The notes below the pieces were generated by a model that was given only the letters and a program-made list of their open reading frames with translations, was not told where the DNA came from and did no database searches. Below, piece after piece: positions 13,267-16,845 of a stretch of 29,140 bases of DNA (position 1 is its first letter; every line of letters starts with the position of its first letter). This DNA comes from Candidatus Micrarchaeota archaeon (GTDB lineage Archaea; B1Sed10-29): the NCBI GenBank assembly GCA_964388265.1, contig CAYLXZ010000009.1:1-29140 (forward strand). The letters are read 5' to 3'. A program made the translations under genes and the position numbers.

Positions 13267-13782
13267 ATGATAAGTTCAATAATCCTATACTCCATACTAA
13301 CAGCACTAGTACTATACAGCCGAAGAAAAGGCAACATACTAGAAAGAATAGGGTTTAAAAAAGAAGTAAACGTATCAAAAGAACTCCTAATATCTCTAGG
13401 TTATCTAATACTACTAATAGCTATATCAATAACAGTAGGAATAATTTTCTATCAATTAGGAATGCAGCAAGATCTTCAAAAAGCACCTGAACTCCTAAAA
13501 GAACTTCCAATCACCGAAGTCCTCACCGTGTTGCTCATCGGTTCATTCACCGAAGAAATATTCTTCAGAGGATACCTACAGGAAAAAACAAATATCTGGG
13601 TATCAACATTCATATTCAGCTTTTTCCACGTAATATACGGATCCTTAGCGGAAATCGTAGGGGCATTCTTCCTAGGACTAGCCCTAGGACATGAATACAG
13701 AAAGACAAAAGGAGTATTCAGCCCGATAATAACCCATGTATTCTACAACCTAATAGTAATATCAATGGTGACCTTAGCTTGA
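13267..13782 (+). CDS. CPBP (CAAX/Abi) family intramembrane glutamic endopeptidase
   Basis: EEIFFRG, FSFFH, ITHVFYN motifs; multiple TM segments; ATG 13267 just after the rps27ae stop. Confidence 0.88.
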   Translation: MISSIILYSILTALVLYSRRKGNILERIGFKKEVNVSKELLISLGYLILLIAISITVGIIFYQLGMQQDLQKAPELLKELPITEVLTVLLIGSFTEEIFFRGYLQEKTNIWVSTFIFSFFHVIYGSLAEIVGAFFLGLALGHEYRKTKGVFSPIITHVFYNLIVISMVTLA

Positions 13783-14738
13783 ACTGCCTTGGAATAGAAT
13801 CAACAGCACACACCCTAGGAATAGGGATAACCCAGAACCAGGAGATCCTAGCGAACGAAAGAGACATCTACAAACCTGAAGAAGGAGGAATAGTCCCTGA
13901 AGAAGCAGCAGAACACCACAAAAAAGTGAAGAGAGAAACAGTAGAAAGAGCTCTGGAAAAAGCAAACCTAGAGAAAAAAAACATAGACCTAATAGCAGTT
14001 GCAAAAGGACCTGGGCTACCACCTTGCCTATCCCAAGGAGTGAAACTAGCTAAAGAACTATCAAAAGAACTAGAAGTAGAAATAGTGCCTGTGAATCACT
14101 GCATAGCCCATATAGAGATAGGTAAAAAAACAACTGAAGCTGAAGACCCGTTAGTACAATACGTGTCCGGAGGAAACACCCAGATACTATCACTAGCAGG
14201 AGGAAAATACAGAATACACGGAGAAACACTGGACATAGGTATAGGGAACGCGTTCGACAAGTTCGCAAGAGAAATAGATCTCTCAATGCCAGGAGGACCA
14301 AAGATAATGAAACTAGCTGAAAAAGGAGAAAAATACATAGAACTACCCTACACCGTCAAAGGAATGGATCTATCCTTCTCAGGACTAGTAACAGAAGCCT
14401 CAAAGAAAGCAAAGAAAGAAACAAAAGAAAACATCTCCTACTCATTCCAAGAAACCGCTCTATCCATGCTAGTGGAAGTTACAGAAAGAGCAATAGCACA
14501 CACAAAGAAAAAAGAGCTTCTACTAACAGGAGGAGTCGCAGCAAACACCAGGCTAAGACAGATGAATAAAAAAATGACAGCAACCCATGACGCCACGTTC
14601 CACGTTCCCGAAAAAGAGTACTGCGGAGACAACGGAGCCATGATAGCCTACACAGGAGCAAAATACAAGGAAAAAGCAGTGAAAGATCTTGACATAGATC
14701 CAAGATGGAGACCAGACACAGTGAAGGTGAGACAATGA
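13779..14738 (+). CDS. kae1: KEOPS t6A synthase Kae1 (TTG start)
   Basis: LGIESTAHT, GPGLPPCL, VNHCIAHIE, YVSGGNTQ, GETLDIGIGN, GDNGAMIA; SD GGTGA before TTG. Confidence 0.97.
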   Translation: MNCLGIESTAHTLGIGITQNQEILANERDIYKPEEGGIVPEEAAEHHKKVKRETVERALEKANLEKKNIDLIAVAKGPGLPPCLSQGVKLAKELSKELEVEIVPVNHCIAHIEIGKKTTEAEDPLVQYVSGGNTQILSLAGGKYRIHGETLDIGIGNAFDKFAREIDLSMPGGPKIMKLAEKGEKYIELPYTVKGMDLSFSGLVTEASKKAKKETKENISYSFQETALSMLVEVTERAIAHTKKKELLLTGGVAANTRLRQMNKKMTATHDATFHVPEKEYCGDNGAMIAYTGAKYKEKAVKDLDIDPRWRPDTVKVRQ

Positions 14739-15289
14739 ATACCGTGGGAATTGACCTAGCTGGACTTCCAAAGAACGACACCGGATTCTGCAACCTAGAA
14801 GACAAAAAAACAACAGCCAAAACACTAAAAGAAGATGAAAAAATAATCAAAGAAATCGAAAAATTCAACCCAGAGATAATAGGTATAGACGGACCATTAT
14901 CCAAACCCAAGAAAGGAAAACTAAGAGAATGCGACCAAGAACTAAAAAGACACGGAGCCCTACCACCAATGATGTCACGAGGAATGAAAAAACTAACAGA
15001 AAGAGCAATAAAAATATCAAAAGAACTGGAAAACAAAGGATACAAAGTAAAAGAAGTTCTACCATCCGCAACCGCCAATATACTGGGAATGAAACGGAAG
15101 AAAGGAGAAGAAAAGAAACTCCAGAAACAGATGATAGAACTAGGATTAAAAGGAACCGTAGAGAGAAGAATGCTATCAATAGACGAATTAGACTCAATAC
15201 TAGCATCACTAACCATGAAACTTCACCTAGACGAAAAAACAAGAGAAATAGGAAACCCAGAAGAAGGAATAATAGTGATTCCTAAATAA
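14735..15289 (+). CDS. DUF429-like predicted nuclease (RNase H fold)
   Basis: VGIDLAG..KNDTG, IGIDGPLS, RECDQEL, EVLPSA, DELDSILA; ATGA overlap with kae1. Confidence 0.8.
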   Translation: MNTVGIDLAGLPKNDTGFCNLEDKKTTAKTLKEDEKIIKEIEKFNPEIIGIDGPLSKPKKGKLRECDQELKRHGALPPMMSRGMKKLTERAIKISKELENKGYKVKEVLPSATANILGMKRKKGEEKKLQKQMIELGLKGTVERRMLSIDELDSILASLTMKLHLDEKTREIGNPEEGIIVIPK

Positions 15290-15298
15290 AGGATAAAA

Positions 15299-15898
15299 AT
15301 GAATGTAATATACCGAGGAGCCGAAGCAATACTATACAAAGACGAATACCTCGACATACCAGTGATAAAAAAAGAGAGAAAACCAAAAGAATACAGAGTA
15401 AAAGAAATAGACAAGAAAATAAGAGAACACAGGATAAAAAAAGAAGCCAGGATGATGAAGAAATCTAGAAAATCAGTTAAAACCCCCTACATACTACAGA
15501 TCGATCCAGAGACCACCACACTAACAATGGAAGAAATAAACGGTGAAACACTCAAAGAAAGAATAAAAAACAGACAAGAAAATGCAGAAGAAGTAGGGAA
15601 AGAGATAGGTGAACTGATAAAAAAGCTACATGAACAAAACATCACGCACAACGACCTAACCACCTCTAATATGATAAGAGGCAAAGACGGAGAGATATAC
15701 TTCATAGACTTTGGATTAGCTGAAGACACGGAGAAAGTAGAAGACAAAGCAATGGACCTCCTTGTATTCAAAAAAATGCTAAAAAGCACACACTGGGAAG
15801 ACACCGAGAAAATCTGGAAAAACCTAAAAGAACAGTACGGAAAAGGAAGAATTCTACAGAGACTAAAGCAAATAGAGAAAAGAGGGAGATACACGTGA
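15299..15898 (+). CDS. bud32: KEOPS kinase/ATPase Bud32
   Basis: GAEA, KERKPKEYR, HNDLTTSN, IDFGLA, EDKAMDL, C-terminal KRGRY. Confidence 0.96.
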   Translation: MNVIYRGAEAILYKDEYLDIPVIKKERKPKEYRVKEIDKKIREHRIKKEARMMKKSRKSVKTPYILQIDPETTTLTMEEINGETLKERIKNRQENAEEVGKEIGELIKKLHEQNITHNDLTTSNMIRGKDGEIYFIDFGLAEDTEKVEDKAMDLLVFKKMLKSTHWEDTEKIWKNLKEQYGKGRILQRLKQIEKRGRYT

Positions 15899-16110
15899 CT
15901 TCCTCCCTCTACCTTTTAAGGTAGGGGTTTCCAGAGTTCAGATCTCCACTCTTTATACCTTCTTCATTCATTTCAGTCGGAGCGGGCTTATCTGGAAGCT
16001 TCGCTAAAGGTTCGAGGTTCCTGCTTCAACCACGGAACTTATATCTCCATAAGAGGTAGCAGAGGTTCACAGTGTCCACAGGCGTAATTCGGCCGCGCCC
16101 CTGCCTACAC
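15875..16110 (-). ncRNA. Orphan IS200/IS605 (TnpB)-type omega/sot-like RNA: scaffold about 16108-15895 plus about 20-nt putative guide 15894-15875
   Basis: Minus strand reads GTAGGCAGGGGCGCGGCCGAATTACGCCTGTGGAC...GAAGCAGGAA...GGAAACCCCTACCTTAAAAGGTAGAGGGAGGAAGTCAC. This is the motif order I recognise from tnpB 3' ends/right ends (imperfect terminal hairpin then TCAC). No tnpA/tnpB ORF is present. Confidence 0.72.
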
Positions 16111-16130
16111 ACAAAAACAAGAACCAGAGA

Positions 16131-16146
16131 CATATAAATTTATCTC
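16131..16146 (-). promoter_or_regulatory. Putative BRE/TATA for the orphan RNA
   Basis: Minus strand AGATAAAT-TTTATATG (TATA at 16138-16131), about 22 nt upstream of the scaffold's first G (16108-16110). Confidence 0.55.
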
Positions 16147-16181
16147 TAACAACCCTCAGTTAATTAAAGTTAAAAACCAGG

Positions 16182-16243
16182 CCTCACCTATCTATAAAGA
16201 AAATAGTCCCCCTTTCCCATGGGTGAGGAAAAGGATTTTTCAC
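16182..16243. other. Structured intergenic element (possible IS left end or second small RNA)
   Basis: 10-bp stem CCTCACCTAT (16182-16191) / ATGGGTGAGG (16219-16228), inner CTAT/ATAG hairpin, loop CCTTT able to pair with downstream AAAGG. Confidence 0.4.
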
Positions 16244-16386
16244 CAAATAAGTTAAATAACCCGGGAACAAAAAAATAAAAGAACTCAAAGAAAACCAACT
16301 CTCACACTAAAAGATATTTAAAACACGGAAAGCAAAAGAGATACAAGCTCTTAAATACAACAGAAAGAGAGAAAAAGGTTATATTT

Positions 16387-16845
16387 ATGGCGAGAATGCA
16401 TTCTAGAGACAAAGGAAGCTCCGGATCAACTAAACCAGCTTCAAAAGAAGCCCCAAACTGGGTAGATATGTCCGAAGAAGAAGTAAGAGAAAAAATCATA
16501 GAGCTAGCTGAAGAAGGAGAAAACCCAAGCGACATAGGAAGAATACTAAGAGACGAACACGGGGTCCCAGACGTCAAAGCAGTCACAGGAGAAAAAGTAA
16601 CGGACATACTCGAAAAAGAAGACCTAAAAGAAGAATACCCAGAAGATCTGATGAACCTCATGAAAAGAGCCGTAAAAATAAGAAGACATCTGGAAAAAAA
16701 CTCAAGAGACAAAGAAAACAAAAGAAACCTCAAACTCACTGAATCAAAAATAAAAAGACTAGTAAAATACTACAAAAGAAAAGGAGAACTACCAGAAGAC
16801 TGGTTCTACGAACCAGAAAGAGCAAAACTAATAGTAGAAGAGTGA
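16387..16845 (+). CDS. rps15: 30S ribosomal protein S15 (uS15/S13e type)
   Basis: MARMHSRDKGSSGS, IGRILRDEHGVP, PEDLMNL, ESKIKRLVKYYK. Confidence 0.98.
   Translation: MARMHSRDKGSSGSTKPASKEAPNWVDMSEEEVREKIIELAEEGENPSDIGRILRDEHGVPDVKAVTGEKVTDILEKEDLKEEYPEDLMNLMKRAVKIRRHLEKNSRDKENKRNLKLTESKIKRLVKYYKRKGELPEDWFYEPERAKLIVEE

Follow-up and report, generated by a model that had tools for sequence, protein, structure and literature searches.

A probable gene-less miniature of a tnpB-only insertion sequence, carrying a TnpB omega-RNA scaffold, at the end of a Bud32-type kinase gene in a Candidatus Micrarchaeota archaeon

Gene-less derivatives of IS605/IS1341-type elements, known as PATEs, have been described in Haloquadratum walsbyi (Dyall-Smith et al. 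2011, PMC3119063). According to a later account that deals with Geobacillus stearothermophilus, PATEs often encode omega-RNAs that TnpB uses in trans (Meers et al. 2023, bioRxiv 10.1101/2023.03.14.532601). Archaeal IS1341-type tnpB genes are reported to carry related RNAs, called sotRNAs or omega-RNAs, at their 3' ends (Gomes-Filho et al. 2015, PMC4615843), and in TldR systems a nuclease-dead TnpB is described together with a guide to a host promoter (Wiegand et al., bioRxiv 10.1101/2023.11.30.569447). Structures of the ISDra2 TnpB-omega-RNA complex (8h1j, 8exa) are matched by the TnpB of the genome considered here.

We analyzed a window of 29,140 nt, the whole stretch of DNA under study, from a Candidatus Micrarchaeota archaeon. 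An initial annotation had placed in it, on the minus strand at 15895..16146, a stand-alone and domesticated TnpB-type guide-RNA gene. Our analysis argues that the segment is very probably the omega-RNA (reRNA) half of a PATE-like, gene-less miniature of a tnpB-only (IS1341-type) IS200/IS605 insertion sequence, which is also present at full length in the genome. The element is an ordinary new example of an already described kind of selfish element.

The mini-element and its insertion site

All of the minus-strand motifs on which the initial annotation drew, namely the TATA box, the scaffold blocks, the hairpin and the TCAC, are present, and the segment is indeed richer in G+C (0.43-0.52 across 15850-16149 vs 0.30-0.40 in the flanks). 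Its extent had been drawn too small, as the unit spans 15895 to ~16287. What had been taken for a stand-alone gene forms the right half of a ~393-nt mini-element, whose left half is the left end (LE) of a tnpB element with its putative TATA promoter. The parts and their neighbors are as follows.

15299..15898, plus strand: small RIO/Bud32-type kinase gene (open reading frame and Pfam kinase families)
15875..15894, minus strand: presumed guide, 20 nt of flank after TCAC, antisense to the last Bud32 codons
15895..16287, minus strand: whole gene-less mini-element, ~393 nt, left end and promoter joined to the omega-RNA scaffold
15895..15905, minus strand: 3' side of the terminal stem (GAGG) and right-end terminus AAGUCAC (family consensus UAGUUCAC)
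15906..16013, minus strand: copy-specific expansion of the terminal-stem loop, ~100 nt (8-60 nt in family members)
16014..16108, minus strand: conserved omega-RNA scaffold core (covariance model match and alignment to 12 other scaffolds)
16104..16110, minus strand: predicted transcription start and GTAGG deletion junction, 5' UTR start joined to scaffold start
16130..16137, minus strand: TATA box TTTATATG of the putative LE promoter, within the palindromic ATAAATTTAT
16138..16287, minus strand: LE region of the parent insertion sequence; the same block precedes the tnpB start on contig C39
16387..16845, plus strand: ribosomal protein S15 gene, outside the element (Pfam PF08069, PF00312; conserved downstream neighbor)

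The right boundary is the point at which similarity to the Bud32 3' ends of relatives starts again, at 15894, directly after the TCAC that had been proposed as the right end and that coincides exactly with the return of homology. The left boundary (~16287) is uncertain by ~20 nt. On this side, 16287-16104 aligns locally to a second mini-copy (C5:28899-28716), and 16278-16111 aligns to sequence that precedes tnpB on C39. Within the LE the best-conserved part is the block at 16130-16196, where the window and C5 copies are 87% identical, vs 64% over 16197-16287; identity around this promoter block as a whole is 64-71%. The LE also contains an imperfect hairpin of 10 pairs at 16235-16209. No direct repeat indicative of target duplication was seen in the flanks of the mini-copies, and no common TAM is definable from the left-end flanks, as the two mini-copies share only TGA and C39 lacks it.

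Comparison with relatives shows that the insertion hit the final codons of the Bud32-type kinase gene, which precedes rpS15, and that the kinase gene now takes its stop from the element. The Bud32 stop TGA (15896-15898) is the reverse complement of the terminal TCA of the element, and the Bud32 of relatives runs 0-13 codons past ..RY[T/L]. Synteny of Bud32 and S15 is kept in all five family relatives, and in each the spacer is ~100-210 nt long and free of the element, vs 488 nt here. The second locus gives the same picture: the spacer between FtsZ and SecE is 587 nt here vs ~65-160 nt, with the mini-copy absent, in all four relatives that have the locus. From the source sample itself (run X1), the contig of a relative skips 15801-16306, has 96 other letters instead and lacks the element. 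Empty-site alleles, which it had been proposed to look for, were thus found at Bud32-S15 (5/5), at FtsZ-SecE (4/4) and in the X1 contig. A further contig of ~88% identity, from runs of two other studies, covers 16128-16410, that is, the LE adjoining S15, and ends at the TATA box, before any view of the scaffold; given this contig, the insertion may be older than its lack in the relatives implies.

The 488-nt spacer has no open reading frame of at least 60 aa except two frames that overlap the neighbor genes, both without a Pfam match. The window holds no nuclease gene, as had been stated, the best PF07282 signal in C9 (15.6 bits) lying below the cut-off.

The omega-RNA scaffold and its relatives

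To the right of the junction, GTAGG (16108-16104) is followed on the minus strand by GGCAGGGG..CCGAATTACGCCTGTGGA. The scaffold core consists, in order, of TAGG, stem 1, CCGAA, ACGCCUGUGGA, a variable hairpin, GAAGCAGGAA (at about 16031-16022) and CCUC, the 5' side of the terminal stem. We built a covariance model, R1, from 23 scaffolds of other genomes, 13 of which read as tnpB-linked; it comprises 19 pairs, 10 of them with compensatory changes. In the window, R1 gives a single match, at 15994-16114 on the minus strand (43.5 bits, E 2.6e-13), which is far above chance. The 725,682-nt assembly has three matches only: the 3' end of tnpB on C4 (81.7 bits), the C5 mini-copy (51-57 bits) and the window copy, which scores lowest (43.5 bits, E 6.4e-12). 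On C4, in the genome G029 and in many haloarchaeal and Firmicutes loci, this scaffold and the 3' end of a tnpB frame overlap. The flagged segment is a true TnpB omega-RNA scaffold with its TCAC end at 15895, and the assignment to this class is borne out by both the R1 score and the homology to tnpB 3' ends.

In the window copy, 2 of the 36 family-conserved columns are changed relative to the family consensus, and stem 1 keeps four of six pairs, as does the tnpB-linked C4 copy. The CCUG/CAGG long-range helix and the CCUC/GAGG terminal stem are present. The pairing of CCTG with CAGG, proposed from the letters, belongs to the family consensus structure; both sides are invariant, so covariation gives no proof of it. 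Between the two mini-copies, differences fall in 3/36 family-conserved columns vs 10/28 variable columns (Fisher p 0.011), a bias that points to selection and that, should the two deletions have been independent, could have arisen in the full-length parents.

The 3' part departs from the family. The alignment of R1 fails here, across the 100-nt expansion, which accounts for the ~90 extra nucleotides noticed earlier ahead of the terminal hairpin; ~100 nt sit in the loop of this last hairpin. Relative to the C5 copy, the expansion is effectively unalignable (47% identity, 39 gap columns). It contains a TTCCAGA/TCTGGAA pair and an CCCCTACC..GGTAGAGG hairpin, with stems from minimum-free-energy (MFE) prediction alone, and a hairpin CCCCTACCTT-AAAA-GGTAGAGG lies at 15927-15905. 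The terminal GGAGGAAGTCAC ends at 15895, and its block, (nearly) invariant in 23/23 model sequences, has one substitution and one missing U in the window copy. The single-sequence fold has no extra stability (MFE -60.9 vs a shuffle mean of -60.94, z 0.01).

A search of the window against Rfam at the gathering threshold returned only tRNA-Gln, and at E up to 10 the region 15700-16400 gave four chance-level matches (E 4.4-9), none relevant, HgcC included. This null result carries no information, because six canonical tnpB-linked loci also gave 0 matches to Rfam 15 at E up to 0.1; the idea that a missing Rfam match would speak against a guide RNA is therefore void. This very widespread scaffold is not represented by any model in Rfam 15. 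A pattern scan found tnpB-less scaffolds to be common in bacteria and archaea, and the combination of LE motif, TATA box and scaffold without a reading frame recurs in G029 (L174, L175) and in other archaea (L063, L107, L087). A DNA search of 41 genomes gave only short motif matches, in G029 and G032, and these led to the link with tnpB.

The genome holds a second mini-copy, with the same junction, between FtsZ and SecE (C5:28544-28899); its LE ends only 35 nt short of the start codon of SecE. Between CCGAA and ACGCC, the coding C4 copy has one base that is missing from both gene-less copies, which agrees with the earlier remark that the residual coding pattern is out of frame. The ends of the window element correspond to those of the tnpB elements of this genome, the left to C39 and partly to C10, and the right to C4 by way of the sister copy and the model.

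That a TnpB is encoded elsewhere was also correctly anticipated. A 310-aa piece on C10 carries HTH_OrfB and OrfB_IS605, a 113-aa piece on C4 carries the Zn-ribbon/TNB domain, and the two contig ends share 55 identical overlapping nucleotides. The pieces align to ISDra2 TnpB with E 3.4e-34 and 6.8e-9, and GIDLG, ENL and DRDYNA, which we take to be the RuvC triad, are visible in the tnpB translations. The tnpB across the C10/C4 ends thus appears to be intact, with a sister scaffold of the same subfamily. Further tnpB copies or fragments lie on C39, C3 and C1. The search for tnpB and tnpA was fruitful for the former, found with its catalytic motifs, but not for the latter: Y1 TnpA (PF01797) has no match in the 82%-complete assembly, and present mobility of the element is for this reason doubtful. 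Within the class, a protein search with the TnpB C terminus matched in 6 of 31 genomes, this one (G000) included, too few for a tree.

Origin, possible use and alternative explanations

Ahead of the scaffold, the window has sequence homologous to that preceding the tnpB start on C39, and the homology takes in the TATA box. At the position equivalent to the junction, C39 has ..TATGTAGGTG.., and C4 has ..CTAGGTAAGGGAC.. at the 3' end of tnpB. We propose that a deletion between two short TAGG(T) repeats, one where the tnpB 5' UTR begins and the other where the scaffold begins within the tnpB 3' end, took out the entire tnpB frame and would have joined the transposon left end and its TATA promoter straight to the guide-RNA scaffold. 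The C5 copy has exactly the same box TTTATATG, which we infer to be a promoter, and C39 has it with one base changed, ahead of the tnpB 5' UTR. Archaeal TATA boxes have a typical spacing to the start, on which the predicted start at 16104..16110 is based; GTAGG follows the first T of the box after ~29 nt, so that the fitting distance noted at the outset holds. A metagenome scan with a 21-nt promoter string returned one unrelated A+T-rich record with telomere-like repeats.

Transcription from the LE promoter would start at ~16106 and yield ~210 nt of scaffold plus 15-20 nt of flank, probably ending in the T-run near 15880; TTTT at 15881-15878, within the presumed guide, could serve as a terminator. 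Among the sequencing runs listed as containing the stretch, none is an RNA run. Since the proposed deletion sets the transposon promoter directly before the opening bases of the guide scaffold, no 5' processing of the RNA would be required. It could load onto the C10/C4 TnpB, whose own scaffold is assigned to the same subfamily, and use in trans is plausible. The complex would recognize the Bud32 3' end where it is uninterrupted (the empty site), following the cycle of homing and retention described for IS605 elements. The presumed guide in the window, whose position is like that of guides in the literature, matches its own flank only: neither 12/12 identity nor 16 nt with as many as two mismatches brings up another site in the assembly. 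At the latter setting, the C5 and C4 guides have two and one further weak sites and otherwise no second site, and at 20 nt with four mismatches there are just scattered low-complexity near-matches. The scaffold copies that it had been suggested to count thus number three, and their guides have no strong second target.

The window copy is the most degenerate of the three and may be impaired as a guide by its mutated terminal block and 100-nt loop expansion. It is possible, if doubtful, that the same deletion derivative is by now an inert scar, decaying, transcribed or not, unused by any TnpB, and kept since its removal would harm the Bud32 stop or the region upstream of S15. Such decay would suit the lowest R1 score of the three (43.5 bits), the altered terminal block and unalignable ~100-nt expansion, the lack of a fold-stability signal, a guide without another target in the assembly and the failure to find TnpA in an assembly that is 82% complete. 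It sits less well with a core changed at only 2/36 family-conserved columns, while 10/28 variable columns differ from the sister copy, with a promoter block retained at 87% identity and with a matching, apparently intact tnpB in the genome. The mini-elements might be at an early stage of co-option in a reduced archaeal genome, in which self-transcribed guides bring the few intact TnpBs to uninterrupted alleles near essential genes (Bud32/S15-S3Ae and FtsZ/SecE-NusG-L11), giving drive or exclusion at the population level against co-resident relatives without the insertions, and in which the outward A/T-rich left ends may give downstream operons TATA boxes; we regard this as unlikely.

That the host keeps the segment as a domesticated gene for a trans-acting omega-RNA, serving a TnpB- or TldR-like regulator of a host target, as the initial annotation had it, is very unlikely. 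In its favor are a putative promoter of its own, the lack of a nuclease in cis, the neighboring core translation genes, a promoter block that is conserved between both copies, and the LE that adjoins S15 also in the ~88% identity contig from the runs of other studies. Yet the promoter is the left-end promoter of the transposon itself, the syntenic spacer is empty in 5/5 family relatives, and the guide is the flank, without a second match in the assembly. A TldR-type partner finds no support either, since the matching TnpB keeps GIDLG, ENL and DRDYNA rather than a dead site, and the window has no TnpB-like gene. We likewise give little credence to a transcript acting in cis, independently of TnpB, as an antisense regulator of the 3' end of the kinase mRNA. 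The predicted RNA would run antisense to 15-25 nt at the 3' end of the kinase gene, but such an overlap is an automatic result of the landing site, nothing else speaks for this reading, and the T-run would end transcription after ~17 nt. The G+C-richer island in an A+T-rich archaeal spacer, with a TATA box ahead, could in principle be a structured RNA of another class (SRP RNA, RNase P RNA, a riboswitch, or a C/D or H/ACA guide), which we hold to be hardly conceivable, as the tnpB-scaffold model accounts for the conserved blocks and Rfam offers only the four chance-level matches (E 4.4-9) at 15700-16400. The SRP RNA gene lies on C13 (124.1 bits) and that of RNase P RNA on C19 (87.5 bits), and both were rejected as candidates for the segment.

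The value of a gene-less IS605/IS1341 mini-element with an omega-RNA is mainly one of annotation, as the spacer would otherwise be left blank or labeled a novel small RNA. If the RNA is active, the ~100-nt loop expansion of the terminal hairpin could inform guide-RNA engineering.

Comparison with described systems

With the guides of TldR systems, as these are presented by Wiegand et al. (10.1101/2023.11.30.569447), the locus shares a TnpB-type scaffold that is in principle usable beyond transposon maintenance; it differs from them in that the matching TnpB still has its catalytic motifs and the guide has no match beyond its own flank. Closer are the archaeal sotRNAs, since the scaffold blocks are those of haloarchaeal tnpB 3' ends (L043, L045 and others) and a ..UCAC end is followed by flank. 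Unlike sotRNAs, which in the account cited above overlap the tnpB frame, the RNA predicted here has lost the frame, with one frame-keeping base missing.

The likeness to the PATEs of H. walsbyi, as set out in PMC3119063, extends to a length too short for a protein, to the lack of inverted terminal repeats and visible target duplication, and to ends related to a tnpB-bearing insertion sequence of the same genome. The host in our case is a sediment archaeon with a small genome rather than a haloarchaeon, and two copies were found here vs hundreds there; that description, moreover, predates the guide-RNA interpretation. The Geobacillus PATE-like elements, to judge from their published description (10.1101/2023.03.14.532601), differ in that the present element is archaeal, has a TATA promoter set for a start at the first bases of the scaffold, comes with no detected TnpA and is known from sequence alone. 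As in Geobacillus, however, it is a protein-free unit of left end, right end and omega-RNA scaffold, TnpB comes from separate copies of the insertion sequence, and the flank-derived guide fits the model of donor-joint (empty-site) targeting.

A TnpB-type scaffold beside rpS15

The flagged segment (15895-16146, minus strand) forms the right half of a mini-transposon that carries no gene, is lineage-specific and has its own flank as guide, rather than the stand-alone gene proposed in the initial annotation. It lies on contig C9 of an archaeal assembly of 725,682 nt in 45 contigs (82% complete), within a 488-nt spacer between a small kinase gene and rpS15. Every motif listed in that annotation was found on the minus strand. 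From its kinase Pfam hits and the nearby Kae1 gene, we infer that the kinase is Bud32.

Genes and motifs of the locus (motifs as read in the sequence)
13779-14738: Kae1/TsaD gene, upstream of the DUF429-like ORF
14705-15289: weakly DUF429-like ORF, upstream of the kinase gene
15299-15898, plus: small RIO/Bud32-type kinase gene with kinase Pfam hits, on one side of the spacer
16387-16845, plus: rpS15 gene, on the other side of the spacer
After rpS15: S3Ae, DUF92 protein, CDP-archaeol synthase, tRNA-Gln
16137-16130, minus: TATA box TTTATATG
About 29 nt downstream of TTTATATG, minus: GTAGG
Minus: scaffold blocks GGCAGGGG..CCGAATTACGCCTGTGGA and GAAGCAGGAA
Minus: TTCCAGA/TCTGGAA pair
Minus: hairpin CCCCTACC..GGTAGAGG
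Minus, ending at 15895: terminal ..GGAAGTCAC

The G+C content is 0.43-0.52 in the flagged region versus 0.30-0.40 in its flanks, and the region folded alone gains no stability over shuffles (z 0.01). Rfam gave no relevant match for it. The initial annotation had offered a missing Rfam match as grounds for rejection; this does not apply, because six canonical loci likewise gave no Rfam 15 match (E up to 0.1), and Rfam 15 holds no model for this widespread TnpB-type scaffold family. SRP RNA and RNase P RNA were rejected as identities for the region, both being located elsewhere in the genome.

A BLAST of the assembly, as the annotation had suggested, recovered a paralogue on contig C5 sharing the promoter and first 100 nt of the window copy (83% identity, E 2.6e-21), and a search of 41 genomes gave short matches in two, G029 and G032. 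In G029, the window blocks occupy the final codons of two tnpB-like ORFs and the sequence immediately after them (..VNPQGTSQ..DRDYNASLNILEKG..), with the structured part of these tnpB-linked copies terminating ..GGTAGTTCAC. An exact-pattern scan for the 16 specified bases of CCGAA-NNN-ACGCCTGTGGA, one genome per species, yielded at least 119 stretches. Among the matches listed, sources include Haloarchaea, Firmicutes, Cyanobacteria, Hadesarchaea, Methanococci, an Asgard archaeon, a Nanoarchaeota MAG and others; 80 loci were fetched with 82 occurrences, 64 of the 82 having at least 400 nt upstream. Within these listed matches, a same-strand ORF of at least 100 aa ended no more than 250 nt from the motif in 45 of the 64 occurrences, and 30 of the 45 ORFs passed a crude zinc-ribbon / DxDxNA test; inspection by eye corrected three loci, L118 having passed without being TnpB and L047 and L086 having failed while being TnpB. 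No tnpB was recognisable at the remaining listed occurrences, and the few tnpB-less ones in G+C-rich bacteria, which lack the other scaffold blocks, are probably chance matches.

The family plan comprises, in its 5' part, TAGG, a 6-bp stem, CCGAA, three variable bases, ACGCCUGUGGA and a variable hairpin, and, in its 3' part, GAAGCAGGAAGC, a terminal stem and UAGUUCAC, followed by the flank. Covariance model R1 was built from 23 scaffolds, none from this genome. Of these, 13 were judged tnpB-linked (the ORF test supplied 11, and G029 the other 2), and L047 is a fourteenth, TnpB-like by eye. The RNAalifold consensus of the 23 has 19 pairs, 10 of which are changed on both sides with pairing kept in at least one sequence; stem 1 and the terminal stem covary, and the long-range CCUGU/(G/A)CAGG helix is invariant. 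Searched against the whole assembly, R1 gave exactly three matches: the tnpB 3' end on C4 (81.7 bits), the C5 paralogue (51 bits; 57.2 bits, full length to TCAC, in a smaller search space) and window positions 15994-16114 (43.5 bits, E 6.4e-12 in the assembly search), the last bearing out the original call of a TnpB-type guide scaffold. The extra scaffold nucleotides noted at the outset are also present, as about 100 nt inserted in the terminal-stem loop, and because of this insert R1 is unable to reach the true 3' end of the window copy. By eye, a stem forms between CCUC (16017-16014) and GAGG (15905-15902), and AAGUCAC comes next; the family consensus for this stretch is ..GGGG-UAGUUCAC.

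TnpB genes and the guide

The window contains no tnpB: PF07282 scores at most 15.6 bits on C9, below the cut-off. The annotation was right that no nuclease lies in cis, and its expectation of a TnpB encoded elsewhere holds.

TnpB coding sequences in the source genome
End of C10: N-terminal piece, 310 aa, with HTH_OrfB_IS605 and OrfB_IS605
End of C4: C-terminal piece, 113 aa, with a Cas12f1-like TNB/zinc ribbon, then its scaffold
C39: second N-terminal piece
G000:C3:15314-16594, minus: TnpB of another type, 427 aa
G000:C1:24057-24593, plus: TnpB fragment interrupted by masked bases

The C10 and C4 ends have 55 identical nucleotides in common, so that the assembler very probably broke a single gene into these two pieces. 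They align with ISDra2 TnpB (8h1j, 8bf8/8exa; E 3.4e-34 and 6.8e-9) and contain GIDLG, ENL and DRDYNA, which we take to be the RuvC Asp-Glu-Asp motifs. No R1 match lies downstream of the C3 TnpB. Y1 TnpA (PF01797) was not found in the assembly, which at 82% completeness does not establish its absence.

No other site for the window guide (the 20 nt following TCAC) exists in the assembly, either at 12/12 or at 16 nt with two mismatches or fewer, and the C5 and C4 guides lack a convincing one. Under the transposon model, a guide taken from the flank and directed to the empty site would behave in this way; a regulator acting on a remote promoter would not. In the window copy, a TTTT run 14-17 nt past TCAC could end the transcript.

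Insertion and origin of the mini-element

The empty-site comparison proposed at the outset supports insertion: Bud32 and S15 are adjacent in all five family relatives, with element-less spacers of about 100-210 nt, and in a contig of a diverged relative, from the probable source run, 96 other letters stand between 15801 and 16306 and the element is missing. The relatives' kinases finish ..RY[T/L] plus 0-13 more residues. In the window, the kinase frame reads ..RGRYT and then TGA (15896-15898, plus), the reverse complement of the element's terminal TCA; beyond the left end (16288-16330), it would run about 14 codons more. The insertion therefore fell within the non-conserved C-terminal tail of the kinase and truncated it. 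A 284-nt contig of about 88% identity, from runs of two other studies, covers 16128-16410, with the left end adjoining S15, and stops at the TATA box, short of the scaffold; it hints that a sister population may have the insertion in common. The C5 copy is likewise an insertion, its FtsZ-SecE spacer being 587 nt versus about 65-160 nt in relatives (locus found in four of five).

These loci hold other features. Spacers of four relatives (L028, L029, L030 and L031, from G001, G004, G005 and G003) have a conserved AAA(T/C)TTATAAAG box, then ..A(T/G)A(T/A)A(A/C)C(A/C)ACAATAA.., about 100-170 nt upstream of S15; the region has no ORF, the box is not evident in G000, and it may be a distal promoter or an unannotated small RNA. 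On C5, between FtsZ and the guide side of the mini-element, lie about four tandem copies of a 40-nt unit (L002 1173-1335, just downstream of FtsZ), each a GGAGAAT..ATTCTCC hairpin and then a T-run, which look terminator-like. The terminal loop of the C5 copy carries about 50 extra nt (L002 ~1395-1445), a double-hairpin module that recurs near the beginning of contig C12 with a tRNA gene on either side (~100-165; 85% identity over 40 nt) and may constitute a very small mobile or terminator unit in its own right.

The window and C5 copies remain homologous past the TATA box (16287 to 16104), giving mini-elements of about 393 nt in the window (15895-16287) and 356 nt on C5.

Identity between the window and C5 mini-copies
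Distal left end: 64%
67-nt block ending at the TATA box: 87%
TATA box to TAGG: 71%
Scaffold core: 70%
Loop expansions: 47%, unalignable

The window left-end block, TATA box included, also lies upstream of the tnpB start on C39, where ..TATGTAGGTG.. and a leader of about 55 nt separate it from the tnpB ORF. On C4, the scaffold at the 3' end of tnpB starts ..CTAGGTAAGGGAC.., and in both gene-less copies about 21 nt lie between the promoter and (G)TAGG, with the scaffold next. Most simply, one deletion between two TAGG(T) repeats would have removed tnpB before the element was copied; alternatively, tnpB may have been deleted twice, independently, at the same TAGG microhomology. Core differences between the copies affect 3 of 36 family-conserved versus 10 of 28 variable columns (Fisher p 0.011), a pattern compatible with continued constraint on promoter and scaffold, which would also arise from divergence older than independent deletions. 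TnpB may still use the window copy, as the conserved core and promoter argue; but its terminal block is altered, its loop is greatly expanded and its R1 score is the lowest of the three copies, so that it may be impaired.

The 67-nt block (16130-16196, minus), TATA box included, is the best conserved between the mini-copies and is also retained on C39; it contains a TTAATTAA palindrome and could be a regulator or transposase binding site. The outer left end is A/T-rich in both copies (window 16265-16290; C5 L002 1708-1761, ATAAATAAATAA on the plus strand), lying about 100 nt before S15 in the window and 35 nt before the SecE start codon on C5. With no other TATA-like box between that end and the SecE start codon, the C5 mini-element may now supply the promoter of SecE-NusG-L11.

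Relation to known mobile elements

The scaffold does have a putative promoter, as annotated, but it is the transposon's own, homologous to that upstream of tnpB on C39. With this promoter, lineage-specific occurrence and a self-flank guide, domestication is not borne out. The architecture of the window element also occurs at loci L063, L107 and L087 and in G029. The latter has five strong R1 matches: two tnpB-linked, two gene-less with left-end motif and TATA box (L174, L175), and a short third tnpB-less copy (L173). Compact tnpB-less scaffolds (92-133 nt) are found in other archaea (L063, L107, L087, L044, L012, L174, L175), several with a GG(G/A)GA(T/C)GAAAGCCG left-end motif and TATA box upstream; that of L063 lies directly before a tRNA gene.

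Palindrome-associated transposable elements (PATEs) were defined in Haloquadratum (Dyall-Smith et al. 2011, PMC3119063). Protein-free PATE-like elements are described in Geobacillus, in a report stating that PATEs often encode omega-RNAs and that TnpB of other IS copies must act on these in trans (Meers et al., bioRxiv 10.1101/2023.03.14.532601). Another preprint has the scaffold spanning the right end plus a flank-derived guide of about 16 nt, and describes TldR, a nuclease-dead variety of TnpB (Wiegand et al., bioRxiv 10.1101/2023.11.30.569447). The window element fits the description of a PATE, a kind of element already known, and does not fit that of a TldR system.
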